Assembly: GCA_035514415.1 (NCBI GenBank)
Contig: DATKBC010000116.1
Coordinates: 1-34,585 of the forward strand
Source: Pleomorphomonadaceae bacterium
GTDB lineage: Bacteria; Chloroflexota; Limnocylindria; QHBO01
Direction: 5' to 3'
Length of the DNA stretch: 34,585 bases
Numbering within the stretch: the first letter of the stretch is position 1; every line of letters starts with the position of its first letter. Of this stretch, positions 3,394-26,219 are shown in pieces. The translations under genes were made by a program, and so were the position numbers. The notes under the pieces were generated by a model, which had not been told where the DNA came from, searched no databases, and saw only the letters and a list, made by a program, of their open reading frames with translations.

Positions 3394-3408
3394 GGCATAC
3401 TGCGGCCG

Positions 3409-3738: not shown

Positions 3739-3752
3739 CAGGACCGATACCG

Positions 3753-4361
3753 ATGAGCGCGCCGCCGCGCGCCTGGGTGGACGAGCTGGAGTTCGGCGCA
3801 CCGGACGTGGTGGCCGTCTGGCGCCTCATCGATCCAGCCGATTTCAGCAAGGACTACTCGGCCACCCGCGCAGAGTTGAGCCAGCGCGCGGGTGCCGGCA
3901 GCGCCCCTCGCGTGCTGGCTGAGCAGGAAGCCATCGCCGACGCGCTGGAGGCGATCCTGGCCGAGATGCCCGATGAACTTCTCCGGGCGCCCGGCGGAGA
4001 GGCGGACTGGAACGTGGCGCAGGCGTTCGCCCATACCACCGGGTCCCGGCGCTATCTGGCTGCCGCTGCCGCCATGGCGGCCCGAGGCGAGTGGCCGGAT
4101 CCTCCGCCGGTCGTGACGCCCGGCATCCCCGGTCCGGCCGATGCCGACCGCGAGACGCTGCTCATCCTGCTGGGGAAGAGCCGCCGATCGATGACCCTTT
4201 CCACGACGGCGATTTCCGGCCACGAGACCGATCCCTGCCCGCTTGACCATCCGCTCATCGGGACTCGGCTGCTCTGCGGCGAGTGGCTCCTGTTCTGCGG
4301 CGTCCACGACCTCATGCACCTCGAGCAGCTCCACGGCCTGCTGGACCGCGCCACCGAATGA
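3753..4361 (+). CDS. DinB-superfamily (DinB_2-like) metal-binding protein
   Basis: It has a helical-bundle-like composition with a WNVAQAFAH block and a C-terminal CGVHDLMHLEQL His pattern typical of DinB-fold proteins. This is weak, by-eye evidence. Confidence 0.4.
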   Translation: MSAPPRAWVDELEFGAPDVVAVWRLIDPADFSKDYSATRAELSQRAGAGSAPRVLAEQEAIADALEAILAEMPDELLRAPGGEADWNVAQAFAHTTGSRRYLAAAAAMAARGEWPDPPPVVTPGIPGPADADRETLLILLGKSRRSMTLSTTAISGHETDPCPLDHPLIGTRLLCGEWLLFCGVHDLMHLEQLHGLLDRATE

Positions 4362-5485
4362 GCGGAGGCGCACGCCCCGCGCCGCTGGTCTTGATGGGTG
4401 CTCCCGCGGCCGACGATGCACCGTTTGGGTCGTACGCGGCGGTCCTCGCCACCGGACGGCATTTGCTGGCCGCGGAGCTCAGCCAGCGGCTGGCCCGCCA
4501 GGGCGCGGCCGTCCAGCTCATCCCGCCGGTTGAGGCAGGCCCGTTTCATTGGGGATCCTGGTACGCGGGCGCGGCCCGTGCCGCTCTGGACGAGGCTGGG
4601 GACCGAGTGGATGCACTCGGCTGGGTTGGCGCCGGGGCCCTCGCCCTGCTCGCGGATGAGGGGTTAGACACCCTTCTGAGCCCGATCGCCGGCGAGGTGG
4701 TCACCAACAACCGCTTCAGCTCCGATGCCTTCGTGGTGGCCGGCGACCTATCGGAGGCGCTCGGAGTACTGTCAGGACTGGGAGCCGACAACAGCGCCCC
4801 GCGGGCGCTGGAAGCGGCCGGCTTCACGATCCGCGACCTGTCGGACGCCCCGTGGACCCGGTTCGACGTCGACACGCCGCTCGATCTGGCCCTGCTCCGG
4901 CTGGCAACTCGCCTCCCCGGCACCCGGGCGCTGGATTCGGCGATCTCCGCCTTCCTCGAAGGCGCACAGATCCCGGGCGGCCGCCCGCTCGCGATCCCAC
5001 GCGTGGATGAGGTCTTCACTGTCCTGCGGAATCGAAACGCGGAGCTGGTAGTGGCCGGCCGCGTCCCGTCGAGCTCGTTCTCCTACCTCGAGGAGCAGGC
5101 CGCCTGCCGGGTCCGCCTCTTCGTCGAGGAGCGCGGAATGCGGGCGGCACCTGCCAACCGCCCCCGGTCGCTCCTTGCCGATTGGGTCACAGAGAGTGGT
5201 GCCGCGTCCCTTGTCGAGCGGCTCATGGACCTGGGCAACGCGGTCATCATCGACACCCGCGTCATCATGGCCGCCCTCGTCGGGTCCGCGGACCCGGCGG
5301 TTTGGCCGGCGCCCGAAGACCGATTCGCGTCCGACCTCGCCGACCCCGCCCACGTGAGCGCTGAGTGGCTCCGCGAGCTGACCACGGCCGCCGCGGCCGC
5401 TTCGGTCCCGTTCCTGCTGGGCGCCCACACCCTGGTCAGCGACGGCCTCCGCATCCTCACCGACGCCTCTTGGCTCGGGCAATAA
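4358..5485 (+). CDS. Hypothetical protein, possibly with an N-terminal MobA/CofC-like nucleotidyltransferase-fold domain
   Basis: I chose the ATG at 4358 because it forms an ATGA overlap with the upstream stop. The ORF-track start at 4283 would overlap by 79 nt in an Arg/Pro-rich stretch. The motif FDVDTPLDLALL resembles the D-x-D-T-P-x-D-L block of MobA-like NTP transferases. The function is unknown. Confidence 0.5.
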   Translation: MSGGARPAPLVLMGAPAADDAPFGSYAAVLATGRHLLAAELSQRLARQGAAVQLIPPVEAGPFHWGSWYAGAARAALDEAGDRVDALGWVGAGALALLADEGLDTLLSPIAGEVVTNNRFSSDAFVVAGDLSEALGVLSGLGADNSAPRALEAAGFTIRDLSDAPWTRFDVDTPLDLALLRLATRLPGTRALDSAISAFLEGAQIPGGRPLAIPRVDEVFTVLRNRNAELVVAGRVPSSSFSYLEEQAACRVRLFVEERGMRAAPANRPRSLLADWVTESGAASLVERLMDLGNAVIIDTRVIMAALVGSADPAVWPAPEDRFASDLADPAHVSAEWLRELTTAAAAASVPFLLGAHTLVSDGLRILTDASWLGQ

Positions 5486-5590: not shown

Positions 5591-5950
5591 ATGGACCAGA
5601 CCGGACTGCTCTATGTCCTGGGATTCGGCTTCGCCGCGACCACGTTCGTGTTCGGGACGATCCTCTTCTCGTGGTTGATCACCCATCGGCGCAAGCAGGC
5701 GCAGAAGGGGCTGCCCTACGAGTGCGGGATCGACACCATCGGAGACACCTGGTCCCGGTTCGGACTGGCGTTCTACCTGTACGCCCTGCTGTTCGTGGCG
5801 TTCGACGTGGAGATCATCTTCATCTACCTCTGGGCGATCGTGATTCGCGACATCACGCTCACCGGCATGATCCTGATGGGCATCTTCCTGGTGGTCCTGA
5901 TGTACGGCGAGTTCTACGCCTGGAAGAAGGGTGACCTGAAATGGCGATAA
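5591..5950 (+). CDS. nuoA: NADH-quinone oxidoreductase subunit A
   Basis: The protein is 119 aa with 3 TM segments. Characteristic blocks are GLPYECGID and [20 protein letters not shown]. Confidence 0.9.
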
Positions 5951-6570
5951 CAACCCCTCCCAAGGCCGACGAGCCGATCGTCATCCCCGATGCCGCCGGC
6001 GACGACCCGCTGCTGTCCGAGTTCGGGATGGAAGCCCACCCCCAGGGCGGGTTCCATGGCCTGCTGGAGGTCATCCCCACCCGGGCCGACTACATCCTGG
6101 ACCTCATCCGGGCCAACTCGCTGTGGCCGCTCCTGTCCGGGCTGTCGTGCTGCGCCATCGAGATGATGAGCACCGCCACCAGTGTCAACGACGTGGACCG
6201 ATTCGGGATGTTCCCCTTCCGCGCCTCACCCCGCCAGGCCGACGTCCTGATCGTGGCCGGCACGCTGACCACCAAGATGGCTGGGCCGCTGGTCCGGCTG
6301 TGGGCCCAGATGCCTGAGCCCAAGTGGTGCGTGGCCATGGGCACCTGCACGACCAGCGGCGGACGCTTCAAGCGCTCCTACAGCGTTGTCCAGGGCGTGG
6401 ATCGGGTCATGCCGGTTGACGTCTACGTGCCGGGTTGCCCGCCAAGACCCGAGGGCCTGATCTACGGGTTGATGAAGCTCCAGGAGCTGGTCAAGCAGCG
6501 TCGCGGCCAGTGGGCCACCTACGCCGACCGGGGGCCGGACCTGCACTCCTGGGAAGGAGACGTGCGCTGA
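5941..6570 (+). CDS. nuoB: NADH-quinone oxidoreductase subunit B (cluster N2)
   Basis: Motifs are [35 protein letters not shown] and VPGCPPRPE. Confidence 0.92.
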
Positions 6571-7145
6571 GCGCACCCGCCGCGGCGGGCCCGCTGGTCC
6601 GGCTGCTGAGCGACCGGCTCGCCGACGCGGCGAGCGACCTGTGGACCGACGAGGACACGGTGGAGATCCAGGTTCCCCGCGACAAGATCGTCGAGTCGCT
6701 CCGCACCCTGCGCGATGACGCGGACTTCGGCTTCTTCTTCCTGGCCGATGCGGCCGCGGTCGACTACGGGGTCGGCAACTGGTTCGAGGTTGTCTACCAC
6801 CTGTACTCGGACCGCCACCCCACCTGGCTGCGGGTCCGGGTCAAGGTCGACCGCGAGAATCCCGTGACGCCCACCATCACCTCCCTGTGGGAGGGGGCGA
6901 TGTTCCACGAGCGCGAGATGTACGACATGATGGGCATCGTCTTCGAGGGCAACCGCGACCTGCGGCGGATCTACATGTCGCCCGACTACCGGTCCTTCCC
7001 GCAGCGCAAGGATTTCCTGCTCCCCGATGACGCCGCCGATTCCGCGGCGGCAGGCAACCGCCCGCTGGAGCGGCCCGAAACGTGGGACCTGAGCAAGCTG
7101 GAGGACGCGGCCGCGCACCGCGACGAGCCGGGAGGCCCGGTGTGA
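6567..7145 (+). CDS. nuoC: NADH-quinone oxidoreductase subunit C (start uncertain)
   Basis: Motifs are [40 protein letters not shown] and RKDF. The start is ambiguous. CTG 6567 lies 6 nt after the SD GGAAGGAGA and overlaps the nuoB stop. GTG 6510 and TTG 6435 would overlap nuoB by 61 or 136 nt. There is a C-terminal hydrophilic tail of about 40 aa. Confidence 0.8.
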
Positions 7146-8416
7146 CGACCACCAAATCCCGTCCGGCGCCGGAACAGCCCGGCGAGGAGCCGCGCGTCCC
7201 GGACCCCATTGCCCTGGACGCCATGGCCACCACCGCGCCGCGCCAGGAGTTCTTTGGCTTCGACATCGTCCCGCCGCCGGACCGGCCCCCGCAGACCGAG
7301 CGCGAGATGGAGGTCTACACCCTGGGCGACGGGGAGATGCTCGTCAACATGGGCCCCCAGCACCCGTCCACCCACGGCGTGATGCGCCTGGTGCTCAAGG
7401 TCCGTGGCGAGGTGGTCATCGACATCGACCCCGTGCTCGGCTATCTGCATCGCGGGATCGAAAAGCTGTGCGAAGAGGCGACCTACACCACGGTCCTGAC
7501 CTACGTCGACCCCATGGACTACATGTCGGCCATGCACAACGAGCACGCGCCGGCCATCGCGTTCGAGAGGCTGTACGGGATCCAGGCCCCGCGCCGGGCG
7601 GAGTACATCCGGGCCCTGGTGGTGGAGCTGAACCGGGTGTTCAGCCACGGGCTGATGATGGGCTTCCTGGCGCTCGACATCGGCGGCCTGACCCCCATCC
7701 TGTACGGCTTCATCAACCGCGACGAAGTGGTGGAGATGCTGGCCGCCATCTCCGGTCAGCGGATGCTGTTCAACTTCTTCCGGGTGGGCGGGGTGAATTT
7801 CGACACCAACGACGAGTTCATGTCGCGCCTGGGTCGCTGGCGAGCCAACGTCCTGGACAACATCGAGATGAACGAGAAGATCCTGACCGAGAACGAGATC
7901 TTCCGGGCTCGGACCAGGGGCATGGGCACCCTGACCGGGAAGCAGGCCATCGATCTGGGCGTCAGCGGCCCCAACCTGCGGGCCAGTGGCGTGCCGTTCG
8001 ACGTCCGCAAGGCCCACCCGTACTGCATCTACAACGAGCTTGAGTTCGACGTCATCACCCAGACTGAGGGCGACACCTACGCCCGCTACATGCAGCGCAT
8101 CGCGGAGCTGAAGCAGTCCATCCACCTCATCGACCAGATCGTGGACAAGATGCCCCACGGCCCGGTCCAGGCCCAGGTGCCGGGGATCATCCGCCCTCGC
8201 CCGGGACGGGCCTACGCGGCCATCGAGTCGCCACGTGGGCTGTACAGCGTGTACGCCATCAGTGACGGCGGCCCCAACCCGTATCGGTTCCGGATGCGCG
8301 ACCCCAGCTTCATCAGCCTCCAGGTCATGCCCAAGCTCATGCCCGGGCACCTCATCGCCGACACCATGGCGATCATGGCCAGCCTGGATCCGATCATGGG
8401 CGGCGTGGACAAGTAG
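7142..8416 (+). CDS. nuoD: NADH-quinone oxidoreductase subunit D
   Basis: Motifs are NMGPQHPSTHGVMRL, GYLHRGIEK and ESPRGLYSVY. GTG 7142 overlaps the nuoC stop (GTGTGA). An alternative start is ATG 7223. Confidence 0.9.
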   Translation: MTTTKSRPAPEQPGEEPRVPDPIALDAMATTAPRQEFFGFDIVPPPDRPPQTEREMEVYTLGDGEMLVNMGPQHPSTHGVMRLVLKVRGEVVIDIDPVLGYLHRGIEKLCEEATYTTVLTYVDPMDYMSAMHNEHAPAIAFERLYGIQAPRRAEYIRALVVELNRVFSHGLMMGFLALDIGGLTPILYGFINRDEVVEMLAAISGQRMLFNFFRVGGVNFDTNDEFMSRLGRWRANVLDNIEMNEKILTENEIFRARTRGMGTLTGKQAIDLGVSGPNLRASGVPFDVRKAHPYCIYNELEFDVITQTEGDTYARYMQRIAELKQSIHLIDQIVDKMPHGPVQAQVPGIIRPRPGRAYAAIESPRGLYSVYAISDGGPNPYRFRMRDPSFISLQVMPKLMPGHLIADTMAIMASLDPIMGGVDK

Positions 8417-8425
8417 GCGGCCGAG

Positions 8426-9445
8426 ATGGATCCGGCGACCATCGAGAGTCTGCTCGGCGTCGGCCGTTTCGTGCTGGCCACCACCCTATTGCTGCTGCTG
8501 ACCGTGCCGACCGCGTTTATCGTGGGCCAGCTGGAGCTGAAGATCATCGCCCTCATGCAGCTCCGCTATGGCCCCAACCGGGTCGGCCCGCGCGGGATGT
8601 TCCAGAGTGCGATCCACGGCTTCAAGATCCTGGCCAAGGAGGACCAGACGCCGGATCGAGCCGACGTGCCGGTATTCACCCTGGCGCCGTGGATGGTGTT
8701 CATGGCGGCCGCCATGAGCATGCTGGTCATCCCGTTCGCCCCCGGGTTGGTGGCCTTCGACTCCGACATCGGCGTCATCTTCTTCTTCGCCATCATCGGT
8801 CTGTCAGTGGTCGGGATGCTGGTCGCCGGCTGGGCGAGCTACAACAAGTACGCGCTGCTGGGCGGGCTGCGGAGCGCGGCCCAAATGGTCAGTTACGAGA
8901 TCCCGTTGACCCTGTCCATCGTAGGGGTCGTGGTCCTGACCGGGACGTTGTCGTTCACCCACATCGTCGAATGGCAGCTGGAGCACGGCTGGGCGGTCAT
9001 CTGGCAGCTGGTCGGCTTCCCGATCTTCTTCATCGCCGCGGCCGCGGAGATCAACCGGACCCCGTTCGACATGGTGGAGGCCGATTCGGAGATCGTGGCC
9101 GGCCCGTTCACCGAGTACTCGGGGATGCGATTCGGCTTCTTCTATTTTGCAGAGTACGTCGCACTTTTCATCATGTGCGGCATCCTGGTGACCCTTTTCT
9201 TCGGCGGGTGGCTGGCGCCGTGGCCGTTCCCGGCCCAGCTGGACGGCTTCGCCGGCACCGTGTACGGCCTGTTCTGGTTCTTCCTGAAGACGTACTTCTT
9301 CGTCTTCGTCGCCGTGTGGGTACGGGCTACCCTGCCCCGCGTGCGAGTCGATCAGCTGAGGGGCATGGCCTGGAAGGCGCTCCTACCGCTGGCGCTGATC
9401 AACTTGTTCGTGACCGCCGCGGTGGTCCTGATCTTCAAGCTGTGA
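8426..9445 (+). CDS. nuoH: NADH-quinone oxidoreductase subunit H
   Basis: It is a polytopic membrane protein. Motifs are RYGPNRVGPRGMFQSAIHGFKILAKED, FAEINRTPFDMVEADSEIVAGPFTEYSG and FFFAEY. Confidence 0.92.
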   Translation: MDPATIESLLGVGRFVLATTLLLLLTVPTAFIVGQLELKIIALMQLRYGPNRVGPRGMFQSAIHGFKILAKEDQTPDRADVPVFTLAPWMVFMAAAMSMLVIPFAPGLVAFDSDIGVIFFFAIIGLSVVGMLVAGWASYNKYALLGGLRSAAQMVSYEIPLTLSIVGVVVLTGTLSFTHIVEWQLEHGWAVIWQLVGFPIFFIAAAAEINRTPFDMVEADSEIVAGPFTEYSGMRFGFFYFAEYVALFIMCGILVTLFFGGWLAPWPFPAQLDGFAGTVYGLFWFFLKTYFFVFVAVWVRATLPRVRVDQLRGMAWKALLPLALINLFVTAAVVLIFKL

Positions 9446-9454
9446 CGAGCTGAC

Positions 9455-10303
9455 ATGGCGATCCCCGGCTCCGGCCTGCTCACCGGCATGGGTGTCACGC
9501 TGCGCAACCTCTTCCGCCCCAAGGTGACGCAGCAGTACCCCGAGGTGCGCCCCGCCATGGCCGAGCGCTGGCGAGGGCGGCTGGACCTCATCTACGACCC
9601 GTTCGGCGAGCACAAATGCGAGGTCTGCTTCCAGTGCGCCATGGTGTGCCCGGTGGAAGCCATCGACATGAGCGGCTTCGACTCGCAGGGCAACAAGATC
9701 CGATACGGGCTGCCCGAGATCTATGACGAGCGTCGCGATCCGAACGCCTTCCGGCGGGCCGGCCTTCCATCCAGACCGATGCGCAACGCGGCGCGATGGG
9801 AGGAAGCGGTCGACACCGCCTGGGTGGACCAGGTCATCGATGGGTTCGGCGGACGCCCCGAATCGCTGGTCGCCATCTTCGGCGCGGTCCAGACCCGATA
9901 CGGGTACCTGCCCGAGCCGGCGCTGCGCCGGATCAGCGACCGGATGACGATCCACTGGGCCCAGGTCTTCGGGGCGGCGGGGCTGGGCGGCTTCCGGCTG
10001 CTGCCCACCGAGGGGCACCTGGTGACCGTGTGCGACTGCGCGGCGTGCCGCTTCGCCGGCGGCGACAAGCTCCTGACAGCTCTGGAGGAGGAACTGGGCA
10101 TCGGGGCCGGTGAGACGACCGATGACGGCGCGTTCACCCTGGAGACCGATGCGAGCGTGGGAGCGGGGGCGATTGCGCCGGCGGTGCGGATCGACACCCT
10201 GGTCTACGGGCCACTCAACGTGGACGAGGCGCGCCACCTGATCTACGCCCGGCGGGCGGAAAAAACCCGCGCCAGGAAGGCCGGCGCCGAGGCGCGCGCC
10301 TGA
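9455..10303 (+). CDS. Fusion protein: N-terminal half of NuoI (one 4Fe-4S Cys motif) joined to a NuoE-like thioredoxin-fold domain with incomplete Cys ligands
   Basis: Residues 1-95 are NuoI-like: GVTLRNLFRPKVTQQYPE, RGRL, then C55-x2-C58-x2-C61-x3-C65-P and VEAIDM. No second Cys motif follows. Residues ~120-265 are NuoE-like: RYGYLPEPALRRIS, VTVC193DC195AAC198RFAGG, LGIGAGETTDDGAFTLE and APAVRID. Confidence 0.75.
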   Translation: MAIPGSGLLTGMGVTLRNLFRPKVTQQYPEVRPAMAERWRGRLDLIYDPFGEHKCEVCFQCAMVCPVEAIDMSGFDSQGNKIRYGLPEIYDERRDPNAFRRAGLPSRPMRNAARWEEAVDTAWVDQVIDGFGGRPESLVAIFGAVQTRYGYLPEPALRRISDRMTIHWAQVFGAAGLGGFRLLPTEGHLVTVCDCAACRFAGGDKLLTALEEELGIGAGETTDDGAFTLETDASVGAGAIAPAVRIDTLVYGPLNVDEARHLIYARRAEKTRARKAGAEARA

Positions 10304-11649
10304 TGGCGGCCGGCCTCTCCCCGCAGATCCGGATCCTCCCCGGCGGGGAGCAGCGCCTGCTGGCCGGGATCGGGAAGCTGGACGCCGAGTCGCTGGCTGC
10401 GTACCGCAAGGCCCATGGCTACCGCGGCCTGACGCGCGCCATCACCAAGCTCTCCCCGGACCAGGTCATCACCGAGATCTTTGCGTCCCGCCTCCGCGGC
10501 CGAGGCGGCGCCGGGTTCCCGGTGGCCGACAAGTGGCGCGCCAGCCGTTCCGCGCCCGGCGAGCGGAAGATCGCGATCGCCAACCTGATGGGCGCCGACC
10601 CGACCTCGCTGGGTGACCGCGCGCTGGCCGAGGGCAACCCGCACCTCGTCCTGGAGGGGCTCATCATCGCGGCCGCCGCGGTGGGCGCCTCCGAGGCCAT
10701 CCTGGCCGTGCGCCGCGACTGGATCGCGGCCATCGAGCGCCTCCGCAAGGCGGTGGCGGATGCCGAGGCCGCGCACCTGGCGGGCTACCTGATCCAGGGC
10801 ACCGACGTGTCGGTCCAGGTGTCGGTGTGGGAAGGCTCCGGCGCCTACGTGGCGGGGGAGGAAACCGCCCTCATCCACGCCCTCCAGGGCGACCGCGGCA
10901 TGCCGCTCATCCGACCGCCGTACCCCGCCGCGCGCGGGCTGTGGGGCGTCCCGACCCTGGTCCACAACGGCGAGACCCTGGCCCACGTGGCCTGGATCCT
11001 GGGCCACTCGGCAGCCGATTTCGCCAAGGTCGGGCCGGAGGAGTCGCCCGGCACCAAGCTGGTCACCATCGCCGGGGCGGTGCGCAACCCAGGCCTGGCG
11101 GAGGTGGCCATGGGCACTTCGGTCGCCGATATCGTCAAGCTGGCCGGCGGGTCGACCGGGACGGTGAAGGCCGCGTTCGTGGGCGGGCCGGGAGCGGGCG
11201 CGCTGGCAGCTGCCGAGCTGTCCTCCACGGGCTACGAATATGGCGCCCTGGGCGCCGCCGGCGCCCATATCGGTTCCGGATCGGTCCTGGTCACCGACGC
11301 CGCCACCTGCATGGTGGCCACGGCCCGCTTCCTGCTGGACTACTCCGCGCGCGAGGCGTGCGGAAAGGCTGTCCCGTGCCGGATCGGCCCGTTGCGCCTG
11401 GTGGAGACCCTGGACCGCATCCTGGCCGCCACGCCGCGTCCCAACGACCTGATCCTTCTGCGCGAGCTGTCGGCCAAGATCGCGGACACGGCCCTGTGCC
11501 GCCTCGAGTCGCTTGCCCCCAGGCCCATGCTCACGACCCTGGACCGCTTCGCGGACGAGTACCGCGCCCACGCCGAGCGGGGGGTCTGCCTGGCCGGCTC
11601 ATGCAAGACGGACCCGGTCGCCCCGCTGCTCGCGCCGCTGGCGTCATAG
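10303..11649 (+). CDS. nuoF: NuoF-like (51 kDa-type) flavoprotein subunit, divergent
   Basis: Motifs are RLRGRGGAGFP, GSGAYVAGEETAL, RPPYPAARGLWGVPTLVHNGET, SPGTKLVTIAG and C353-GK-A356-VP-C359...C399. The ATG overlaps the upstream TGA (TGATG). Confidence 0.75.
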   Translation: MAAGLSPQIRILPGGEQRLLAGIGKLDAESLAAYRKAHGYRGLTRAITKLSPDQVITEIFASRLRGRGGAGFPVADKWRASRSAPGERKIAIANLMGADPTSLGDRALAEGNPHLVLEGLIIAAAAVGASEAILAVRRDWIAAIERLRKAVADAEAAHLAGYLIQGTDVSVQVSVWEGSGAYVAGEETALIHALQGDRGMPLIRPPYPAARGLWGVPTLVHNGETLAHVAWILGHSAADFAKVGPEESPGTKLVTIAGAVRNPGLAEVAMGTSVADIVKLAGGSTGTVKAAFVGGPGAGALAAAELSSTGYEYGALGAAGAHIGSGSVLVTDAATCMVATARFLLDYSAREACGKAVPCRIGPLRLVETLDRILAATPRPNDLILLRELSAKIADTALCRLESLAPRPMLTTLDRFADEYRAHAERGVCLAGSCKTDPVAPLLAPLAS

Positions 11650-11659
11650 GATTGGACCG

Positions 11660-14059
11660 ATGACCTTCGCTGGCGGCAACGGCAACGGGAAGGGCAACGG
11701 CTCCGGCAACGGGGGCATGATCGGGGCGTTCGAGGACTACGCCCCCATCTGGCCGGTGGTCCCCGGCACGCGCAAGATCACGGTCACGATCAACGGCCGC
11801 CAGGTGCAGGCCGAGGAAGGGCAGACCATTCTCCAGGCCTGCCGCGTGCTGGGGCTCGAGATCCCGACCCTGTGCTACGAGCCCAAGCTGTCCCCGTACG
11901 GGGCCTGCCGGATCTGCGTGGTCGAGGTGGAGGGCCAGGACAACACGCCCATCTCGTGTGGCACCCAGATCACCGAAGGGATGGTCATCACCACCCACTC
12001 GGAGCGGGTCATCGAGAACCGCCGCCTGGTGCTGGAGCTGATCTTCTCCGACCACGACGCGTACTGCCTGCCGCCCCGCCAGTTCAAGTGCCCCACCCGG
12101 GTCGACATCCCCGGCTACCTGAAGGCCAACTCGGAGGGCAACTGGGAAGAGGCGACCCGCATCCTGAAGCGGTCACTCCCCTTCCCGGCAATCCTGGGCC
12201 GGGTGTGTCCCGCGCCGTGCGAGACCCACTGCCGGCGCGAGGAAGTGGACACCGCCATCGCCATCCGCGACTCGCATCGGTACTGCGCCGACCGCGTGCT
12301 GGAAGTGGACGCGCCGGCCCCGCTGCCGTGGCCGAAGGAGTCGGACACCGGTCGCCGGGTGGCGATCGTGGGTTCAGGGCCGGCCGGCATGACGGTGGCC
12401 TACTACCTCCAGCTGCGCGGGCATCACTGCGACGTGTTCGAGGCCGATCCCGAGCAGGGCGGCATGCTTCGCTACGGGATCCCCGAGTACCGACTGCCCA
12501 AGGGCTGGATGGACCGCGAGTTGAACCACGTGTGGGAGCTGGGCGCGACCTTCAAGCCGAACATGCGCCTGGGCCGCGACTTCCACCTGGCCGATCTGCT
12601 GGACCAGGGCTACGACGCCGTCTTCGTGGGCACAGGCTGCTACAAGTCGAACGAGATGGGGATCCCCAACGAGTTCGCCGACGGGACCGTCAACGCGCTG
12701 GAGAACCTGTACAACAGCACGCGCGGGGTCCTGGTGCCACGCCTCAAGGGCGCGCGGGTGGTCGTGATCGGCGGCGGGTTCACGGCCATCGACTGCACCC
12801 GGACCTCCCTCCGCCAGGGCGCGAAGTCGGTGACGATCGTCTACCGCCGGGACCTGAAGGACATGCCGTCCCAGGACGAGGTCCACGAGGCCATCGAAGA
12901 GGGGGCCACCGTCATCTTCCAGGCCGCGCCGGTCCGGGTGGTGACCGATGCAAAGGGTCAGGTGACCGGAGTCGAGTTCCAGAAGATGCACCTGGGCGAG
13001 CCCGATGAGAAGGGCCGGCGACGGCCGGAACCCATGCCCGGCACCGAGTTCATCGTCGAGTGCGACACGGTCCTGGGGGCCATCGGCCAGGGACCGGAGC
13101 TAGGGTGGATCGACTCCGAGCCGGAGGAGATCCGCTCCGGGCTGGAGGTCAGCCGCCAGGGGCGCCTGGTGGCCGATGCGAACACATTCCGCACCGGCGT
13201 TCCTCAAGTGTTTGCCGCCGGCGATGTGAACCTTGGCGCAACCACCGTGGTGGAGGCCATCGGCGACGGGCGACGCGCCTCCTATGCGATGGATTACTGG
13301 CTCCGTGGCCACGACCTGGACGACCCGCAGGTGCGACGCATCGTGTCCGAGCCGCAGCCCTCGTTCCTGACCATCGTGCCCTTCACCGACGACGTGAAGG
13401 AGCCCCAGGCGGTGATGGGCAAGCTGGGCGCTGAGGAACGCCGCACGAACTTCGAGGAGTACGAGCACGGCTATACCCACGACCAGGCCATGGGCGAGGC
13501 CGCCCGCTGCCTCCAGTGCACGTGCGAGGCGATTGGCCACTGCGACCTGCGCGAGGCGGCCATCGAGTACGAGACCACCCTGAACATGACGATCGACGAG
13601 CGGTCGATCCAGGACAACCCGTATGTCGGCATCAACCACGGCTACGGCCGGGACGAAACCCACTCGTTCATCCTGCGCGACTACTCGCGCTGCATTGACT
13701 GTGGCCGATGCGCCCAGGTGTGCAAGGACATCGTGGGCGCCGGGTGCTACGACTTCATCGGCAAGGGCTTCGACTCGCTGGTCACCACGGCCGACTACGT
13801 TTCGCTTAACGAGACGCCATGCGTGTCATGCGGGCGCTGCGCGGAGACCTGCCCGGTCGGAGCGCTCATGCCGCGACCACGCATCCTGGAGACCTACCAG
13901 CTCGACGTGAGCCGCTGCATCTTCTGCGGCATCTGCGCCGACGCGTGCCCTTATGACGCTCTGCGCTGCGGCCCGGAGTTCGAGTTCAGCGAGTACCAGC
14001 GCGACCTTCCCATGCTCGACATCCTCGAGATGTCCGACCGGGAGCGCCCCACCCGCTAG
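11660..14059 (+). CDS. Multi-domain Fe-S flavoprotein: 2Fe-2S and NuoG/hydrogenase-type N-terminal Fe-S domain, interrupted by a GltD-like FAD/NAD(P)H domain and ending in the C-terminal half of NuoI
   Basis: The start is ATG 11660, 11 nt after the nuoF-like stop. The ORF-track start at 11513 overlaps nuoF by 137 nt. The N-terminus is a GNG-rich tail. The 2Fe-2S motif is C72-x10-C83-x2-C86-x13-C100, followed by H132-x3-C136. GltD-like blocks are CPTRVDIPGYL, GRVCPAPCETHC, VAIVGSGPAG, VVIGGGFTAIDC, IVYRR and FAAGDV. Then come C617LQCTCEAIGHC628, RCIDCGRCAQVC and CVSCGRCAETCPVGAL. The last ~60 aa are YQLDVSRCIFCGICADACPYDALRCGPEFEFSEYQRDL, a NuoI C-terminal signature. Confidence 0.75.
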   Translation: MTFAGGNGNGKGNGSGNGGMIGAFEDYAPIWPVVPGTRKITVTINGRQVQAEEGQTILQACRVLGLEIPTLCYEPKLSPYGACRICVVEVEGQDNTPISCGTQITEGMVITTHSERVIENRRLVLELIFSDHDAYCLPPRQFKCPTRVDIPGYLKANSEGNWEEATRILKRSLPFPAILGRVCPAPCETHCRREEVDTAIAIRDSHRYCADRVLEVDAPAPLPWPKESDTGRRVAIVGSGPAGMTVAYYLQLRGHHCDVFEADPEQGGMLRYGIPEYRLPKGWMDRELNHVWELGATFKPNMRLGRDFHLADLLDQGYDAVFVGTGCYKSNEMGIPNEFADGTVNALENLYNSTRGVLVPRLKGARVVVIGGGFTAIDCTRTSLRQGAKSVTIVYRRDLKDMPSQDEVHEAIEEGATVIFQAAPVRVVTDAKGQVTGVEFQKMHLGEPDEKGRRRPEPMPGTEFIVECDTVLGAIGQGPELGWIDSEPEEIRSGLEVSRQGRLVADANTFRTGVPQVFAAGDVNLGATTVVEAIGDGRRASYAMDYWLRGHDLDDPQVRRIVSEPQPSFLTIVPFTDDVKEPQAVMGKLGAEERRTNFEEYEHGYTHDQAMGEAARCLQCTCEAIGHCDLREAAIEYETTLNMTIDERSIQDNPYVGINHGYGRDETHSFILRDYSRCIDCGRCAQVCKDIVGAGCYDFIGKGFDSLVTTADYVSLNETPCVSCGRCAETCPVGALMPRPRILETYQLDVSRCIFCGICADACPYDALRCGPEFEFSEYQRDLPMLDILEMSDRERPTR

Positions 14060-14290: not shown

Positions 14291-14695
14291 ATGACGGATC
14301 TCCCCCAGCAGCCGATCGAGATGATCCTGCTCCGGCAGCTTTCGGAGCACCTGTCCATCCCGATGTGGGTCATCGACGCGGAGGGCGATCTCGTCTTCTT
14401 CAACGAGGCGGCCGAGCCCACCCTCGGCGTACGGGCCGACGACGTCGACCAAATGCCGTTCGAGACCTGGACCACCTCCTTCCGCCCTCGGGACGAGTCG
14501 GGCAATCCGCTGGCGGCGGAGGAGCTGCCCCCGGTCATCGCCCTGCGTCGGGGAGAACCGGCGCATGCCACGCTCGAGATCACCGGTGGGGACGGGGTCG
14601 CACGCCGGATCGGCGTCACGGCCTTTCCGCTGACCGGCGGGCACGGCAACATCATGGGCTCGGTGACCATGTTCTGGGAGTCCCCCGAGGCGTGA
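14291..14695 (+). CDS. Stand-alone PAS-domain sensor protein
   Basis: The protein is 134 aa. IPMWVIDAEGDLVFFNEAAEPTLG...RRIGVTAFPL...GSVTMFWE has the PAS beta-sheet pattern. I chose ATG 14291 because the GTG 14234 extension has no SD and an Arg/Pro-rich composition. Confidence 0.6.
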   Translation: MTDLPQQPIEMILLRQLSEHLSIPMWVIDAEGDLVFFNEAAEPTLGVRADDVDQMPFETWTTSFRPRDESGNPLAAEELPPVIALRRGEPAHATLEITGGDGVARRIGVTAFPLTGGHGNIMGSVTMFWESPEA

Positions 14696-15537
14696 TCGTC
14701 CGCCTGTGGGGGACGCGCGGGTCCGTGGCCGCCGCAGGGCCCCAGACGGCTCGGTACGGCGGCAATACGGCCTGCGTCGAGGTGCGCGGCGACGACGGGT
14801 CGCTGCTCGTCCTCGACGCGGGGACGGGCATCCAGCGCCTGGGCGCCGAGGTCGCCCTGGAGGCGGGGCGGATCGACATCCTGCTTACCCACCTCCACAT
14901 GGACCACATCCAGGGCCTGGGCTTCTTTGCCCCCATCTTTCGCCCCGGCTGCGAGATCCACATCTGGGGCCCGCCCTCGCCGACCCTCCACCTGCGGGCG
15001 CGCCTGACCCGGTACCTTTCTCCGCCCCTGTTCCCCATCCGGCTGCGCGACCTGCGCGCTAATTTCGATTTCCACGACGCGCCCCAGGAGCCGTTCCGCA
15101 TCGGTCCGTTCACGGTTCGAGCCGACGAGGTCATCCACCCCGGCGCGACCCTCGGCTTTCGGGTCAGCGAGAACGGCCGTTCGCTGGCCTACCTGAGCGA
15201 CCACGAGCCGGCGCTGGGCACCGGGGACGGCGATGGCGACACGTCCTGGGTGAGCGGGCTGCGCCTGGCGCGCGGGGCGGACGTGCTCATCCACGACGCC
15301 CAGTACACGACCGAGGAGCGCGCCGAGCGGCTGGGCTGGGGCCACTCCTCGTTCGCCGAAGCCATCGCATTTGCCCGCCGCGCGCAGGTCGGCAAACTGG
15401 TCCTGTTCCACCACGATCCGGCACGAACCGACGACCAGATGGACGTCCTGGCCATGGCCGCCGGGGACCTGGCCGCGTCCACGGCCAACGGCCTGCAGGT
15501 GACCGCCGGGCGCGAGGGCGATCAGCTCTTGCCGTAG
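14692..15537 (+). CDS. MBL-fold metallo-hydrolase (Lactamase_B_2-like; phosphodiesterase-type HxHxDH motif)
   Basis: GTG 14692 overlaps the PAS stop (GTGA). Motifs are VRLWGTRGS, YGGNTACVEV, LLVLDAGTG, THLHMDHIQGLGFF, LIHDAQY and LFHHDP. Confidence 0.75.
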   Translation: MIVRLWGTRGSVAAAGPQTARYGGNTACVEVRGDDGSLLVLDAGTGIQRLGAEVALEAGRIDILLTHLHMDHIQGLGFFAPIFRPGCEIHIWGPPSPTLHLRARLTRYLSPPLFPIRLRDLRANFDFHDAPQEPFRIGPFTVRADEVIHPGATLGFRVSENGRSLAYLSDHEPALGTGDGDGDTSWVSGLRLARGADVLIHDAQYTTEERAERLGWGHSSFAEAIAFARRAQVGKLVLFHHDPARTDDQMDVLAMAAGDLAASTANGLQVTAGREGDQLLP

Positions 15538-15601: not shown

Positions 15602-16111
15602 CTGGACATCTCGACCGTCCTCTTCGTGGTGCTCGCCGCCGGCGTCCTCGGCGGCGGCCTGGCGGCCGTCCTGCTGCGGAACGTGATCCATTCCGCGGTG
15701 GCCATGATGGTCTCCTTCGGAGCCCTGGCTGGCACCTACGCGCTGCTGGGCGCGCCCATCGTGGCCGCTGCCCAGGTCCTCATCTACCTGGGCGCGATCA
15801 GCGTCCTGATCATTTTCGCGATCATGCTGACCCAGGCCGGAGACGCGAACCTGCCGGCGCCATTCCAGCGCCAGGCGCCGGTCGCAGCCCTGGTCGCCAT
15901 CGGGATCGTGGCCCTCGTCGGATGGGCCTTGCTCCAGACCGACTGGCCCAACCCCAGCGTGATCATCCCGGTCGAGCTCGACGACCTGGCAGCCGCCGTC
16001 TTCACCGACTACGCGCTGCCGTTCGAGATCGTGGGCTTCCTGTTGCTGGCGGCCATCATCGGCGCCATCTACCTCGCCCGCCGGCCCGAAGAAGACGAGC
16101 GGATGAACTGA
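15602..16111 (+). CDS. nuoJ: NADH-quinone oxidoreductase subunit J (start uncertain: CTG 15602 or GTG 15626)
   Basis: Motifs are LRNVIHSAVAMM and AAQVLIYLGAISVLIIFAIMLT. The SD GGGGAG (15588-15593) lies 8 nt before CTG 15602, and there is no SD before GTG 15626. Confidence 0.85.
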   Translation: MDISTVLFVVLAAGVLGGGLAAVLLRNVIHSAVAMMVSFGALAGTYALLGAPIVAAAQVLIYLGAISVLIIFAIMLTQAGDANLPAPFQRQAPVAALVAIGIVALVGWALLQTDWPNPSVIIPVELDDLAAAVFTDYALPFEIVGFLLLAAIIGAIYLARRPEEDERMN

Positions 16112-16114
16112 CCG

Positions 16115-16423
16115 ATGGGCCTCGACGGCTACCTGTTCCTGTCGCTCGGCCTGTTCGGGATAGGAGCCTTCGGCTTCCTGGCCCGGCGCAACGCGATCAT
16201 GATGCTGATCTGCATCGAGCTCATGCTGAACGCGGTCAACCTGGCCCTGGTGGCCTTCAACGCGTTCGACTACTACGCCACCGATGACGCCGGCGCCGTC
16301 TTCTCGCTGCTCGTCATGGCCGTCGCGGCAGCCGAGGCGACGGTGGGCCTGGCCCTCGTCATCGCGATCATCCGCACCCGTCAGACCGCCGAGGTCGACG
16401 ACTACGCCGATCTGAAGGAGTAG
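16115..16423 (+). CDS. nuoK: NADH-quinone oxidoreductase subunit K
   Basis: The protein is 102 aa with 3 TM segments. Motifs are LARRNAIMMLICIELMLNAVNLALVAF and AAAEATVGLALV. Confidence 0.9.
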   Translation: MGLDGYLFLSLGLFGIGAFGFLARRNAIMMLICIELMLNAVNLALVAFNAFDYYATDDAGAVFSLLVMAVAAAEATVGLALVIAIIRTRQTAEVDDYADLKE

Positions 16424-16427
16424 CGCG

Positions 16428-18677
16428 CTGGACCTGCAGTCGCTCGTCGCCCTCATCCCGGCCCTGCCGCTGGCCGGCTTCCTGTTCGCGGTGCTGGTTG
16501 GGCCGCGCTTCGACCGGATTCCGAAGCACGCCGAGCACGGTGAGGAGCACGGTGCGGAGCACGGTGCGGGGGCAGGGCACGACACGGGCGGCGACGCACA
16601 TGACCCCCACGACGCGCCCGTCGACGAGTCCGGGTTCCGCAGCGTCCCGACCGAGGAGGAGCAGCGCGAAACCTCGCCCCACCGGGGCCACGCCGACGAC
16701 CTGGCCAACGCCAACGGGGCCGACGGAATCATCCCCGACGAGCTGAACGACGGGCGCGGGCAGCCCGGCCATGTGACGCCCGGCGGGTCGCGGCCGGTCT
16801 ACCGCTCGTGGTGGGTCCCGGTGGCTCTGGTGGCCGCGGCCTGGGCCGCTTCGATGGCCATCTTCGCGTCGGTCATCTTCCAGGGGGCGGAGTACCACGT
16901 CACGGTCTACGACTGGATCGTGTCGGGCGATTTCCGGATCGAGATCTCGTTCTTCGTGGACGCGCTGACCGCGGTCCTCCTGCTGGTGGTCAGCACGGTC
17001 GGCCTGCTGGTCCACGTCTATTCGATCGGTTACATGGACGGCGACCGCAGCGTGTGGCGCTTCTTCGCCTACCTGAACCTGTTCATGTTCAGCATGCTGC
17101 TGCTGATCCTGGCCGACAACTTCCTGCTCCTGTACGTGGGCTGGGAGGCAGTCGGCCTGTGCTCGTACCTCCTCATCGGCTATTGGTACAAGAAGCCGTC
17201 GGCGGCGGGCGCAGCCAAGAAGGCGTTCATCGTCAACCGGGTCGGCGACTTTGGCTTTGGGCTGGGCGTGATCCTGATCTGGACCCTGCTCGGCACGCTG
17301 ACCTTCGAGGGCGTCTTCGCCGGCATCGGCGGGCTCGAGGGCTGGCAGATCACCCTCATCGCCCTGCTTCTGTTCGCGGGTGCGGTGGGCAAGAGCGCCC
17401 AGTTCCCGCTCCACGTCTGGCTGCCCGATGCCATGGAGGGCCCCACCCCGGTCAGCGCCCTCATCCACGCCGCGACCATGGTCAACGCCGGCGTCTACCT
17501 CGTGGCGCGCGCCAACCCGATCTTCGCCGAGGCGCCGACCGCCATGTGGGTCGTCGCCATCATCGGCGCCTTCACCGCCATCTTCGCCGCCGCCATCGCG
17601 CTGACCCAGAACGACATCAAGAAGGTGCTCGCCTACTCGACCGTCAGCCAGCTGGCGTACATGTTCTTCGGGCTGGGGATCGGGGCCTGGGCGGCGGCCA
17701 TCTTCCACCTGCTGACCCACGGGTTCTTCAAGGGTCTCCTGTTCATGGCCTCGGGATCGGTCATCCATGGGGCCGGCGGGGAGCAGGACATGCGCTTCAT
17801 GGGCGGCCTCCGGGAACGCATGCGCTGGACGTACGGGACCATGGTCGTGGGCGCCCTGGCGTTGGCCGGGATCCCGATCTTCGCGGGGTTCTTCAGCAAG
17901 GACGAGATCCTGTCGGAGGCCTTCGCCCGTGGCTACCCGATCTACTGGGCGGTGGGCATCGGGGTTGCGTTCCTGACTGCGTTCTACACGTTCCGCATGA
18001 TCTTCATGACCTTCCACGGCTCGTGGCGCGGGCCAGCGGCCGCCTGGAAGCACGTCCACGAGAGCGCACCGACCATCGTGGCGCCGCTGGTCATCCTGGC
18101 CGTGCCCACCGCGCTGGCCGGGCTGCTGCTTGGCATCCCGCCTGAGGGCGGCACCATCCACCTGTGGCTGGAGGAGGTCTTCGCCGGTGCCGAGGGGCTC
18201 GGCGCCGGCATCCAGCCCGGATCCATCCTGGCCGAGGCCAGGGAGCATGGGGAGGCGCACGGCTTCGAGCTGCTCGGCCTGGGCGGGCTGCTGCTGCTGG
18301 CCGGGGCGTCGGTCGGCCTGGCCGGGATCCTGCTCGCCCGGCGCTGGTACGTCCAGGATCCCGAGGCGCCGGCGCGCTTCGTGCAGCGCATCCCATTCGG
18401 GCTGGGGCCGGGCATGTATCGGGCCAGCCTGAACAAGTACTACTTCGACGACCTGTACCAGCTCGTCTTCTCCCGCGGCGGCGTGGTGCTCTCCAACGCC
18501 CTGTGGTGGTTCGACGTGAAGGTCATCGACGGGGCTGTCAACGGCGTCGGCTGGCTGGCCCAGCGCCTGGGCGGCGGGTTGCGCCGGTCCCAGACCGGTC
18601 GGGTCCAGAACTACGGGTTGGGGATCGCGGCCGGGTTGGTCATCGTGCTGCTGGTCTACGCCACGGTGGTGCGCTGA
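16428..18677 (+). CDS. nuoL: NADH-quinone oxidoreductase subunit L with a ~100-aa His/acidic-rich insertion after TM1; probable CTG start
   Basis: Motifs are WEAVGLCSYLLIGYWY and HVWLPDAMEGPTPVSALIHAATMVNAGVYL. The conserved TM1 (LVALIPALPLAGFLFAVLVG) lies upstream of the first ATG/GTG/TTG at 16491. The frame opens at 16416. CTG 16428 sits 7 nt after the SD GAAGGAG. Confidence 0.85.
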   Translation: MDLQSLVALIPALPLAGFLFAVLVGPRFDRIPKHAEHGEEHGAEHGAGAGHDTGGDAHDPHDAPVDESGFRSVPTEEEQRETSPHRGHADDLANANGADGIIPDELNDGRGQPGHVTPGGSRPVYRSWWVPVALVAAAWAASMAIFASVIFQGAEYHVTVYDWIVSGDFRIEISFFVDALTAVLLLVVSTVGLLVHVYSIGYMDGDRSVWRFFAYLNLFMFSMLLLILADNFLLLYVGWEAVGLCSYLLIGYWYKKPSAAGAAKKAFIVNRVGDFGFGLGVILIWTLLGTLTFEGVFAGIGGLEGWQITLIALLLFAGAVGKSAQFPLHVWLPDAMEGPTPVSALIHAATMVNAGVYLVARANPIFAEAPTAMWVVAIIGAFTAIFAAAIALTQNDIKKVLAYSTVSQLAYMFFGLGIGAWAAAIFHLLTHGFFKGLLFMASGSVIHGAGGEQDMRFMGGLRERMRWTYGTMVVGALALAGIPIFAGFFSKDEILSEAFARGYPIYWAVGIGVAFLTAFYTFRMIFMTFHGSWRGPAAAWKHVHESAPTIVAPLVILAVPTALAGLLLGIPPEGGTIHLWLEEVFAGAEGLGAGIQPGSILAEAREHGEAHGFELLGLGGLLLLAGASVGLAGILLARRWYVQDPEAPARFVQRIPFGLGPGMYRASLNKYYFDDLYQLVFSRGGVVLSNALWWFDVKVIDGAVNGVGWLAQRLGGGLRRSQTGRVQNYGLGIAAGLVIVLLVYATVVR
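16533..16568 (+). repeat. 3 x 12-nt tandem repeat inside nuoL encoding (EHGE/A)3
   Basis: The three units are gagcacggtgag, gagcacggtgcg and gagcacggtgcg. Units 2 and 3 are identical, and unit 1 differs from them at one position. Confidence 0.9.
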
Positions 18678-18678
18678 C

Positions 18679-24982: not shown

Positions 24983-24987
24983 ACATC

Positions 24988-26196: not shown

Positions 26197-26219
26197 AGGG
26201 CGCGGAAAGCGTCCCGCCC

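Follow-up and report, generated by a model that had tools for sequence, protein, structure and literature searches.

The nuo cluster and its divided nuoI gene

Complex I is among the best-studied bioenergetic enzymes, and how it acquired its electron-input module is an open evolutionary question. Here, we focus on a complex I (nuo) gene cluster in a stretch of 34,585 nucleotides (the window; contig DATKBC010000116.1 of assembly GCA_035514415.1, from a bacterium of the class Limnocylindria). The connecting Fe-S subunit of this complex, NuoI, is split by a predicted NADPH module derived from Stn/Nfn enzymes, an arrangement that is conserved across Limnocylindria and recurs in deeper lineages. 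The window has a G+C content of ~70%, and all genes of the cluster lie on the + strand. The cluster begins with nuoA (5591-5950, Pfam Oxidored_q4), nuoB (5941-6570, Oxidored_q6), nuoC (about 6570-7145, Complex1_30kDa), nuoD (about 7142-8416, Complex1_49kDa) and nuoH (8426-9445, NADHdh). It ends with nuoJ (15626-16111, Oxidored_q3), nuoK (16115-16423, Oxidored_q2) and the three genes matching Proton_antipo_M/N, namely nuoL (16491-18677), nuoM (18679-20205) and nuoN (20213-21664). Pfam matches were obtained for all ten of NuoA, B, C, D, H, J, K, L, M and N, and the N2-ligand motifs of NuoB (CC...C...CP, including GCPPRPE) are intact in translation. Three open reading frames (ORFs) follow nuoH: ORF1 (9455-10303, 282 aa), which joins an N-terminal half of NuoI to a NuoE-like domain; ORF2 (10303-11649, 448 aa), which is NuoF-like; and ORF3 (11660-14059, 799 aa from the ATG at 11660), a protein of the StnC/NfnA type whose last segment is the C-terminal half of NuoI. 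Only 9 nt separate the nuoH stop at 9445 from the ORF1 start at 9455, ORF1 and ORF2 overlap in cTGATGg (10301-10305), and 10 nt lie between the ORF2 stop at 11649 and the ATG of ORF3.

NuoI is thus made as two pieces, one at the N-terminus of ORF1 and the other at the C-terminus of ORF3. The N-half (ORF1 residues 1-95; 9455-9739) contains the N-terminal segment GVTLRNLFRPKVTQQYPE and the first cluster motif, C55xxC58xxC61xxxC65P; the second motif is absent from ORF1. In a profile search with the whole of ORF1, residues 9-83 matched positions 1-72 of the 121 positions of the NuoI model TIGR01971. When the first 100 residues were searched alone, NuoI models came out on top with 54.7-59.2 bits, and the top matches of the N-half were all NuoI models, TIGR01971 being covered at about positions 1-73 (54.7 bits). 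The C-half (ORF3 residues 738-799; 13871-14059) carries the motif C753xxC756xxC759xxxC763P, followed by GPEFEFSEY. This C-terminus, YQLDVSRCIFCGICADACPYDALRCGPEFEFSEYQRDL, stands directly after a complete dicluster domain (CxxCxxCxxxC / CxxCxxCxxxCP). ORF3 residues 741-782 match TIGR01971 positions 71-112 of 121. The last 61 residues, searched alone, have NuoI models as all of their top seven matches, with TIGR01971 reaching 51 bits over the same positions and generic ferredoxin models at most 25 bits. Beyond the second motif, the match extends to the GPEFE region of NuoI. The alternative that this segment is a generic Fer4 ferredoxin fails because the C-half is NuoI-specific and because the two halves cover complementary, non-overlapping parts of the NuoI profile.

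Rejoined in silico, the halves give a single uninterrupted match to TIGR01971 (positions 1-112 of 121; 110.1 bits against a curated cut-off of 113.05). Residues 8-127 of the rejoined protein align with mitochondrial TYKY and E. coli NuoI in the PDB at E values of about 1e-24 to 1e-23, with the junction placed in the inter-motif loop. As encoded, the motifs lie 4.2 kb apart, the first on ORF1 and the second on ORF3, and no single polypeptide carries both. Neither the window nor any of 80 related loci, each taken with 10 kb on either side, has an intact nuoI between nuoH and nuoJ. Cofactor sites were tallied over 81 ORF1, 71 ORF2 and 54 ORF3 sequences (the window and its orthologues). The four Cys and the Pro of the ORF1 motif are invariant (81/81), and those of the ORF3 motif are kept in 51-52 of 54, the exceptions being frameshifted long-read loci. 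In three contigs of metagenome-assembled genomes (MAGs) of the Microflora-Danica type (MFD) that are apparently long-read (L011, L045 and L072), the frame of ORF3 breaks near the NuoI C-half, presumably through indel errors, and most of the non-Cys calls in the conservation tally stem from these breaks.

A different identity for the ORF3 terminus was also considered. The program phmmer loosely aligned its motif to StnC residues about 686-699, as if it were a remnant of the Molybdop_Fe4S4 (N7-like) domain. This reading was ruled out by the type of the motif (CxxCxxCxxxCP), by the lack of a match to PF04879, and by the 51 bits scored against NuoI models, which include positions after the motif.

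An earlier note on this DNA, made from its letters alone, had read the start of ORF1 as a normal NuoI without its second Cys motif. It had also placed the missing half in the last ~60 aa of ORF3, 4.2 kb downstream and directly after a hydrogenase/NuoG-type domain. The profile match with the C55-C65 motif, the first rank of NuoI models for the C-half and the translation of ORF3 confirm these three points, and the domain-by-domain profile searches that it suggested uphold the split, including the coverage of NuoI positions after the motif and the margin over generic ferredoxins (51 versus at most 25 bits). The tight coupling of the ORFs (the TGATG overlap and the 10-nt gap) is likewise borne out by the junction coordinates. 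The plain 11-gene order nuoA-B-C-D-H-I-J-K-L-M-N that it described does not hold, since genes for a PAS-domain protein and a metallo-beta-lactamase-fold (MBL) protein intervene before nuoJ.

Domains and cofactor sites of the insert

Beyond the NuoI half, a linker (ORF1 residues 96-124; 9740-9826) leads into the NuoE-like domain, and its stretch ERR..ALRRSGRPVP keeps a similar form in homologues of 38-51% identity. The domain itself has the thioredoxin fold of NuoE/StnA (residues 125-282; 9827-10303; PF01257, E 4.6e-25). Residues 125-263 match 2Fe-2S_thioredx of the NuoE type, and the best PDB matches are 9bov_C, HydC (7p5h_C), NfnC (9n5u_C) and StnA (8oh5_A). The site segment spans residues 193-238 (10031-10168 in the window). 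Within it, the canonical pair C193 and C198 and an extra C195 (C-x-C-x2-C) are invariant, and the second Cys pair is replaced: position 234 is Asp in 49, Glu in 14, Asn in 7, Ser in 5 and Gln in 4 of the 81 sequences, and position 238 is Gly in all 81. Distant relatives are intermediate at this site, P0209 having the extra Cys in addition to all four, and P0171 three Cys and an Asp, and these states hint at ligand swapping rather than plain loss. In public databases, the ORF1 homologues P0001-P0120 are named 'NADH:ubiquinone oxidoreductase subunit E' or 'NAD(P)H-dependent oxidoreductase subunit E' and carry PF01257 only, with no NuoI-type domain reported by Pfam above threshold. As a consequence, automated annotation will count these genomes as lacking nuoI.

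ORF2 matches the profiles Complex1_51K, SLBB and NADH_4Fe-4S, and it aligns better with StnB (8oh5_B; 376 bits, residues 106-524 of 584) than with Nqo1 of T. thermophilus (258 bits). It has neither the N-terminal 2Fe-2S domain of BfuB nor the C-terminal ferredoxin domain that carries B3/B4; the latter is evident because the StnB alignment ends at the start of the ferredoxin domain. The B1/N3 motif reads C353-G-K-A356-V-P-C359...C399 (residues 353-359; window 11359-11379), with A356 in place of the second Cys in 71 of 71 sequences. The FMN loop is conserved as N-L-M-G-A-D-P-T, as against N-A-D-E-G-D-P-G, and GRGGAG and GEET are retained. Three-Cys B1/N3 sites occur in three separate lineages, as CGKAVPC in Limnocylindria (71/71), CGKTIPC in locus L088 and CGRCIPG in locus L085. 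The pattern CxxXxxC...C is typical of [3Fe-4S] sites, and the ORF2 site probably holds a cluster of the 3Fe-4S type. Bifurcation in the Bfu family is defined by a flavobicluster of FMN, B1 and C1, with exit via B3/B4 (PMC12018979). Of the four Cys expected at each of the two clusters, ORF2 has three at B1, and at C1 the second pair is replaced. Judging from these sites, the flavobicluster is remodelled and its ferredoxin exit gone, yet the parts are under selection.

ORF3 is the largest part of the insert. Its G/N-rich N-terminus and [2Fe-2S] Fer2_4 domain make up residues 1-114 (11660-12001; PF13510, E 1.4e-21), with ligands C72, C83, C86 and C100 invariant in 54 of 54. The start of the protein is uncertain, as the low-complexity stretch GGNGNGKGNGSGNGG (11660-11716, the first ~20 residues) is poorly conserved and an in-frame ATG at 11717 offers an alternative. 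There follows a GltD/NfnB-like domain (residues 132-550; 12053-13309; Fer4_20 and Pyr_redox_2) with two [4Fe-4S] sites, H132-x3-C136-x3-C140-x3-C144-P and C183, C187, C191 and H206, together with an FAD motif (G237xGxxG), an NADP-type motif (G371xGxxA) and Y395-R-R; the meaning of these motifs is taken from PMC7483475 and PMC10482914. A further [4Fe-4S] motif, C617-x2-C620-x-C622-x5-C628 (13508-13543), is typical of StnC/NsoC (PMC7483475). The hydrogenase/NuoG-type 2x[4Fe-4S] domain then occupies residues 671-737 (13670-13870; Fer4_Nqo3/Fer4_7; TIGR02512 positions 2-77), with Cys at 678, 681, 684 and 688 and at 721, 724, 727 and 731, the last followed by Pro. Over residues 38-763, ORF3 aligns with 9bov_A (E 8.5e-168), StnC 8oh5_C (9e-146) and NfnA 9n5u_A (1.6e-138). 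StnC H96/C100/C104/C108-P correspond to ORF3 H132/C136/C140/C144-P (offset +36), C147/C151/C155 to C183/C187/C191, and R239 to R278. Lys170 of StnC is an unusual ligand of its FAD-proximal cluster (PMC10482914), and in ORF3 this position is an invariant His206. The model NF009454 (PRK12814, 'putative NADPH-dependent glutamate synthase small subunit') scores 549.9 bits over residues 39-691, below its cut-off of 916. ORF3 is without a C-terminal molybdopterin/FdhF-like domain: Molybdopterin and Molybdop_Fe4S4 are unmatched, and the protein ends 36 residues past the StnC alignment.

The ligands along this chain of clusters are invariant in 53-54 of the 54 ORF3 sequences, apart from one residue of the window. 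There, codon CGC at 12077-12079 gives Arg140 where all 53 orthologues have the Cys that corresponds to StnC C104. The change occurs in this window only, and the 21-residue stretch around it, SDHDAYCLPPCQFKCPTRVDI, is otherwise invariant. Two explanations offer themselves: an error of consensus or sequencing, or a true defect in the NADPH path of this strain.

Taken by its domains, the insert is Stn/NfnABC-like (Bfu family), with the bifurcating core dismantled. The earlier description of NuoE-like, NuoF-like and NuoG-type-GltD domains holds in that such domains are present, but they are specifically Stn/NfnABC-like rather than generic NuoEFG, and cluster ligands and a ferredoxin domain have been lost. 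The gene order NuoE-like, NuoF-like and GltD-in-NuoG is that of the Stn/NfnABC enzymes (S. ovata StnABC, PDB 8OH5; 9BOV; and 9N5U, deposited as NfnA/B/C). The likeness extends through ORF3 residues 38-763, with HxxxCxxxCxxxCP, CxxCxCx5C, the FAD and NADP motifs and R278, to ORF2, which is closest to StnB/NfnB, and to the NuoE-like domain, which is closest to NfnC/StnA. In contrast to Stn, the FdhF-like C-terminal domain of StnC is replaced here by one NuoI half, and the other half sits on the N-terminus of the NuoE-like protein. Further differences are the missing terminal domains of ORF2, the three-Cys B1, the two canonical Cys at the 2Fe-2S site, His206 in place of the Lys170 ligand, and a location within a nuo operon rather than in a soluble enzyme. 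In the simplest history, a stnABC-like operon truncated at its 3' end would have entered nuoI once, in frame, in the loop that separates the two motifs.

With such an ancestry, it has to be asked whether the enzyme still bifurcates or confurcates. In such a 'Nuo-Nfn-Bfu' enzyme, the FMN and B1 of ORF2 and the C1 of ORF1 would remain a flavobicluster, and the tethered NuoE-like domain would swing to the NuoI clusters N6a/N6b, which would replace B3/B4 and ferredoxin, coupling NADP(H), NAD(H) and quinone within a single proton pump. The descent of the insert from bifurcating Stn/NfnABC enzymes speaks for this, as do the movement of the NuoE-like C-terminal domain between FMN and the ferredoxin-side clusters in Stn/Nfn (PMC10482914, PMC12018979) and its covalent tie to NuoI via a conserved linker. 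The distant versions P0142, P0147 and L081 retain a four-Cys 2Fe-2S site, L081 has a canonical B1 and FMN loop as well, and other grounds have led to the prediction of a Nuo-Bfu enzyme (PMC9304861). However, the Limnocylindria proteins have no second Cys pair at the 2Fe-2S site, Ala at B1 throughout, an FMN loop that is not NADEGDPG, and neither terminal domain of BfuB, and deletion of the 2Fe-2S cluster in Stn abolishes bifurcation (PMC10482914). Bifurcation would also be unneeded for NADPH oxidation, because quinone is a high-potential acceptor. We regard this alternative as unlikely and prefer a reading of the module as an NADPH wire into NuoI, with no bifurcation to soluble ferredoxin. ORF2 and the NuoE-like domain would then be remodelled remnants of the bifurcating core, serving as a side branch (possibly with a second NADH/FMN site), as a scaffold, or as both.

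Conservation and recurrence of the split

A search with ORF1 returned 549 database relatives. The best 120, which were inspected, are all full length with 73-90% identity, and the names given are Candidatus Limnocylindria or Chloroflexota. When genomes were scanned at one per species, at least 334 species genomes had an ORF1 relative, and the best 80 loci, which include long-read contigs of 0.7-2 Mb and the 2.09-Mb chromosome OY969424.1, were studied by tblastn. The order nuoABCDH-ORF1-ORF2-ORF3-...-nuoJKLMN is the same in these 80 related loci, with the cassette at the normal nuoI site in 80/80; nuoH, ORF1 and ORF2 are adjacent in 74 of 78, and ORF2 and ORF3 in 72 of 72. Median identity is highest for NuoB (89%), with ORF3 second (86%), and lowest in the cluster for ORF2 (69%).

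The ratio of nonsynonymous to synonymous substitution rates (dN/dS), calculated by the Nei-Gojobori method between the window and five relatives, is 0.03-0.15 for ORF1, 0.08-0.24 for ORF2 and 0.07-0.09 for ORF3, compared with 0.06-0.23 for nuoD, nuoH and nuoL. By parts, it is 0-0.17 for the ORF1 N-half, 0.08-0.17 for the linker and 0-0.05 for the ORF3 dicluster domain; for the NuoI C-half, dN is exactly 0 in all five comparisons with dS of 0.28-0.53. The split arrangement is conserved and under purifying selection. This bears directly on whether the layout is an assembly chimera or a decaying pseudogene, as might be supposed from C140R at an otherwise invariant ligand in this window and from the ORF3 frameshifts in some long-read loci. 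Since 80 independent loci and 334 genomes, obtained in many studies and on many platforms, share one architecture, with tightly coupled ORFs and dN/dS of 0.03-0.24, that explanation is refuted for the family as a whole. The synteny survey in relatives that the earlier note proposed thus finds the split layout again in 80 loci, and its view that the genes are not decaying stands: the junctions recur in 80 independent assemblies, with purifying selection on all parts.

The arrangement is not confined to close relatives. In an exhaustive search of 50%-identity representatives, full-length ORF1-like fusions were found down to 27% identity. In L088 (ORF1 homologue 38%), the order is nuoD-nuoH-[NuoI-N+NuoE]-NuoF-like-[StnC-like+NuoI-C]-nuoJ-nuoK, with the NuoF-like gene, whose B1 reads CGKTIPC, at 3766-5091. 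L085 (27%) has the same layout, with the NuoF-like gene (B1 CGRCIPG) at 2811-4217 and an ORF3-like protein that ends in YTLDVSRCIFCSECVEVCPHNAL. In L082 (37%), nuoABCDH is followed by the fusion. The distant fusion P0136 comes from a contig of 1.3 kb, too short to show its neighbours. A more divergent form is found in L081 (1321-6023; ORF1 homologue 35%, 49% G+C), where nuoH is followed by a NuoI-N+NuoE protein of the four-Cys type, a NuoF+GltD protein of 1048 aa, a HoxU-like+NuoI-C protein of 265 aa and nuoJKLMN. Its NuoF-like protein has an N-terminal 2Fe-2S domain, a fused GltD, and canonical CSKCVPC and NAEEGEPG. The two halves score as NuoI with 60.8 and 49.5 bits, so that the inner domains are rearranged and the NuoI halves are still at the outer ends. 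The architecture of the 265-aa protein was found in two protein clusters only out of 5.8 billion clusters searched, other matches being ordinary NuoG/FdhA-like proteins.

A relative outside complex I lies downstream of pyruvate:ferredoxin oxidoreductase (POR) genes in L083 (1804-7726) and L084. In L083, a half-ferredoxin motif stands at the N-terminus of the NuoE-like protein, and the other half follows the dicluster of a 1060-aa StnC-like protein, fused to a PorB-like thiamine pyrophosphate (TPP) subunit. For either half, NuoI models and not PorD give the best score. Because this POR-linked form has both NuoI-like halves, it suggests that the split NuoI-like plug and the Stn module may travel together as a portable cassette. 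Por-Bfu enzymes have been predicted (PMC9304861), and L083 shares with the complex I form the half-ferredoxin motifs at the same two places. It differs in the fusion of the C-half to the PorB-like subunit, in its place next to POR rather than nuo genes, and in a complete BfuB (634 aa, 2Fe-2S and Fer4).

Since this relative shows that the module can serve other partners, the orphan motifs of ORF1 and ORF3 might not pair at all, with an intact NuoI from elsewhere serving the membrane complex and ORF1-3 forming a separate soluble Stn-like enzyme within the nuo cluster. A lone CxxCxxCxxxCP motif cannot complete a cluster pair, however, and ORF1, unlike the POR-linked version, has the N-terminal segment specific to NuoI (profile positions 1-35). 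Even with rearranged inner domains, every lineage seen has the N-half at one outer end of the cassette and the C-half at the other, and the cassette lies exactly at the nuoI site in every one of the 80 loci. Such a soluble enzyme is therefore very improbable. A bolder proposal would unite the complex I and POR forms: a proton-pumping, quinone-linked transhydrogenase in which Bfu-type bifurcation is hard-wired to complex I, two-chain NuoI is fed both by a mid-potential Fe-S wire in ORF3 and by a swinging NuoE-like domain, N6a/N6b take the role of ferredoxin, and the split plug is reused on POR in L083. We hold this to be rather unlikely.

Electron input, related enzymes and flanking genes

Each cluster of a 2x[4Fe-4S] ferredoxin fold is ligated by three Cys of one motif and by the Cys-Pro of the other motif. 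Because Cys from both motifs are needed for each cluster, formation of N6a and N6b would require ORF1 to pair with ORF3, and the natural inference is that the two NuoI halves reassemble. Pairing of the N-half with the C-half would make both clusters inter-chain, and the input module would therefore be bolted to the quinone module. We put at about 0.6 the probability that this is a working Limnocylindria complex I with a stnABC/nfnABC-like operon inserted in nuoI, which acts as an NADPH wire to a two-chain NuoI and does not bifurcate. The FAD in the GltD-like domain of ORF3 would be the entry point of electrons, which would come mainly from NADPH and perhaps also from NADH. From there, they would pass over the two GltD-type [4Fe-4S] clusters, the CxxCxCx5C cluster and the [2Fe-2S] cluster to the dicluster domain. 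In Stn, electrons follow the path NADPH-FAD-C7-C6-C5-C4-C3-B1-FMN, and C2/C1 form a branch toward an inactive FdhF-like domain that has been called a non-functional remnant (PMC10482914). The exit proposed here is that branch, because the NuoI C-half replaces the FdhF-like domain at its end. From the C-half, electrons would reach N6a/N6b, then N2 in NuoB and finally quinone, driving proton pumping.

Several points weigh against this proposal. Single-sequence AF2 on the rejoined NuoI (143 aa) gave an unusable model (pLDDT, the predicted local distance difference test, 36.7; pTM, the predicted template modelling score, 0.24), so that the pairing of the halves and the distances between clusters are conclusions from sequence. 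In canonical complex I, the exit from NuoG to NuoI runs via the His-ligated N5 cluster; here the N5-type His motif is merged with the GltD insertion, and docking must therefore differ from that of known complex I. ORF2 and the NuoE-like domain may do more than serve as a scaffold, given their purifying selection, the three invariant Cys and the mostly acidic residue. The specificity for NADPH is suggested by motifs, C140R would cost the second cluster after FAD on the proposed path a ligand, and an intact nuoI may lie elsewhere in these genomes.

The direction of flow could also be the opposite, with proton-motive force and quinol driving the formation of NADPH (and NADH) for biosynthesis, in reverse operation or as a membrane-coupled transhydrogenase. 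Complex I is reversible, the NADP-type domain is the most conserved part of the insert, and Stn/Nfn enzymes physiologically produce NADPH (PMC7483475). Sequence does not tell direction, however, and no lithotrophic context is seen in the window, where the neighbours are housekeeping and lipid genes. We consider this quite improbable and retain NADPH oxidation by quinone as the favoured direction.

This proposed complex shares with the canonical 14-subunit enzyme (NuoA-N; T. thermophilus Nqo1-15, E. coli) the membrane and Q-module genes in usual order, the intact N2 motifs, an input module homologous to NuoE/F/G, and a NuoI that, once rejoined, aligns end to end with TYKY/NuoI. It differs in having NuoI on two chains, in nuoEFG-like genes that lie inside nuoI and not between nuoD and nuoH, and in a GltD-type FAD/NADPH domain with which the N5-type His motif is merged, the molybdopterin-like domain of NuoG being absent. 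Schut et al. (2022) predicted Nuo-Bfu (Geobacter type), Por-Bfu and Mbh-Bfu enzymes (PMC9304861). In Nuo-Bfu, too, a proton-pumping complex I has a Bfu-related module in place of the canonical N-module, and the genes of this module lie in mid-cluster among the nuo genes. That enzyme has 14 separate subunits, an intact NuoI, a complete BfuB with its ferredoxin-type domain and no GltD (PMC9304861), whereas here NuoI is split, GltD is present and the BfuBC core is degenerate.

Alternative electron donors are known from the survey of 11-, 12- and 14-subunit forms (Moparthi and Hägerhäll, 2011; PMC3144371) and from the Mbx-like clusters in which a GltD-like protein stands in place of NuoI (Degli Esposti, 2015; PMC4758237). 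In cyanobacterial NDH-1 (ferredoxin), Fpo (FpoF) and Mbx-like complexes, a NuoI-type subunit docks an alternative donor, and there is precedent for a GltD-type flavoprotein (PMC3144371, PMC4758237). In these, however, the subunit is separate or wholly substituted, and none has NuoI divided over two polypeptides that flank the input module. The full-text literature searched (split/fused NuoI, Limnocylindria complex I, Nuo-Bfu and GltD input modules; subscription journals outside coverage) held no description of a split NuoI. The earlier statement that no complex I of such architecture had been described is accordingly right as to the split, and has to be qualified in that a Nuo-Bfu complex I with intact NuoI was already predicted (PMC9304861).

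The layout would represent a new solution to electron input, in which the connecting subunit is cut, an NADPH module is spliced in, and two [4Fe-4S] clusters would be shared by two proteins. If the proposal is true, the result is an NADPH-fed proton pump whose peripheral arm docks with a geometry unlike that of every solved complex I, and an Fe-S branch that leads nowhere in soluble Stn gains a function. It also links Bfu enzymes with complex I, in a class that is common in the soil and freshwater metagenomes behind these MAGs. As a natural split ferredoxin domain, the divided NuoI could guide engineering.

Two genes separate ORF3 from nuoJ in the window, encoding the PAS-domain protein (14291-14695, 134 aa) and the MBL protein (14692-15537, 281 aa), which overlap. 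The distance from ORF3 to nuoJ varies from 157 to 5175 bp over 41 loci, and the MBL gene is limited to the 6 loci closest to the window. Both genes are variable cargo and probably do not belong to the enzyme. In L013, the same interval holds an ECF sigma factor gene on the opposite strand (18640-19206 of that locus) and ORFs without a Pfam match. Downstream of the cluster, a sortase-domain ORF (21649-22341) on the same strand as nuoN overlaps the end of nuoN by 16 nt. Farther on, at 24257-30116, lies a cluster resembling those for phosphatidylinositol / phosphatidylinositol mannoside (PIM) synthesis, with genes for a CDP-alcohol phosphatidyltransferase, a myo-inositol-1-phosphate synthase, a lipid A-type acyltransferase, a PHP-domain protein and a GT4 glycosyltransferase.

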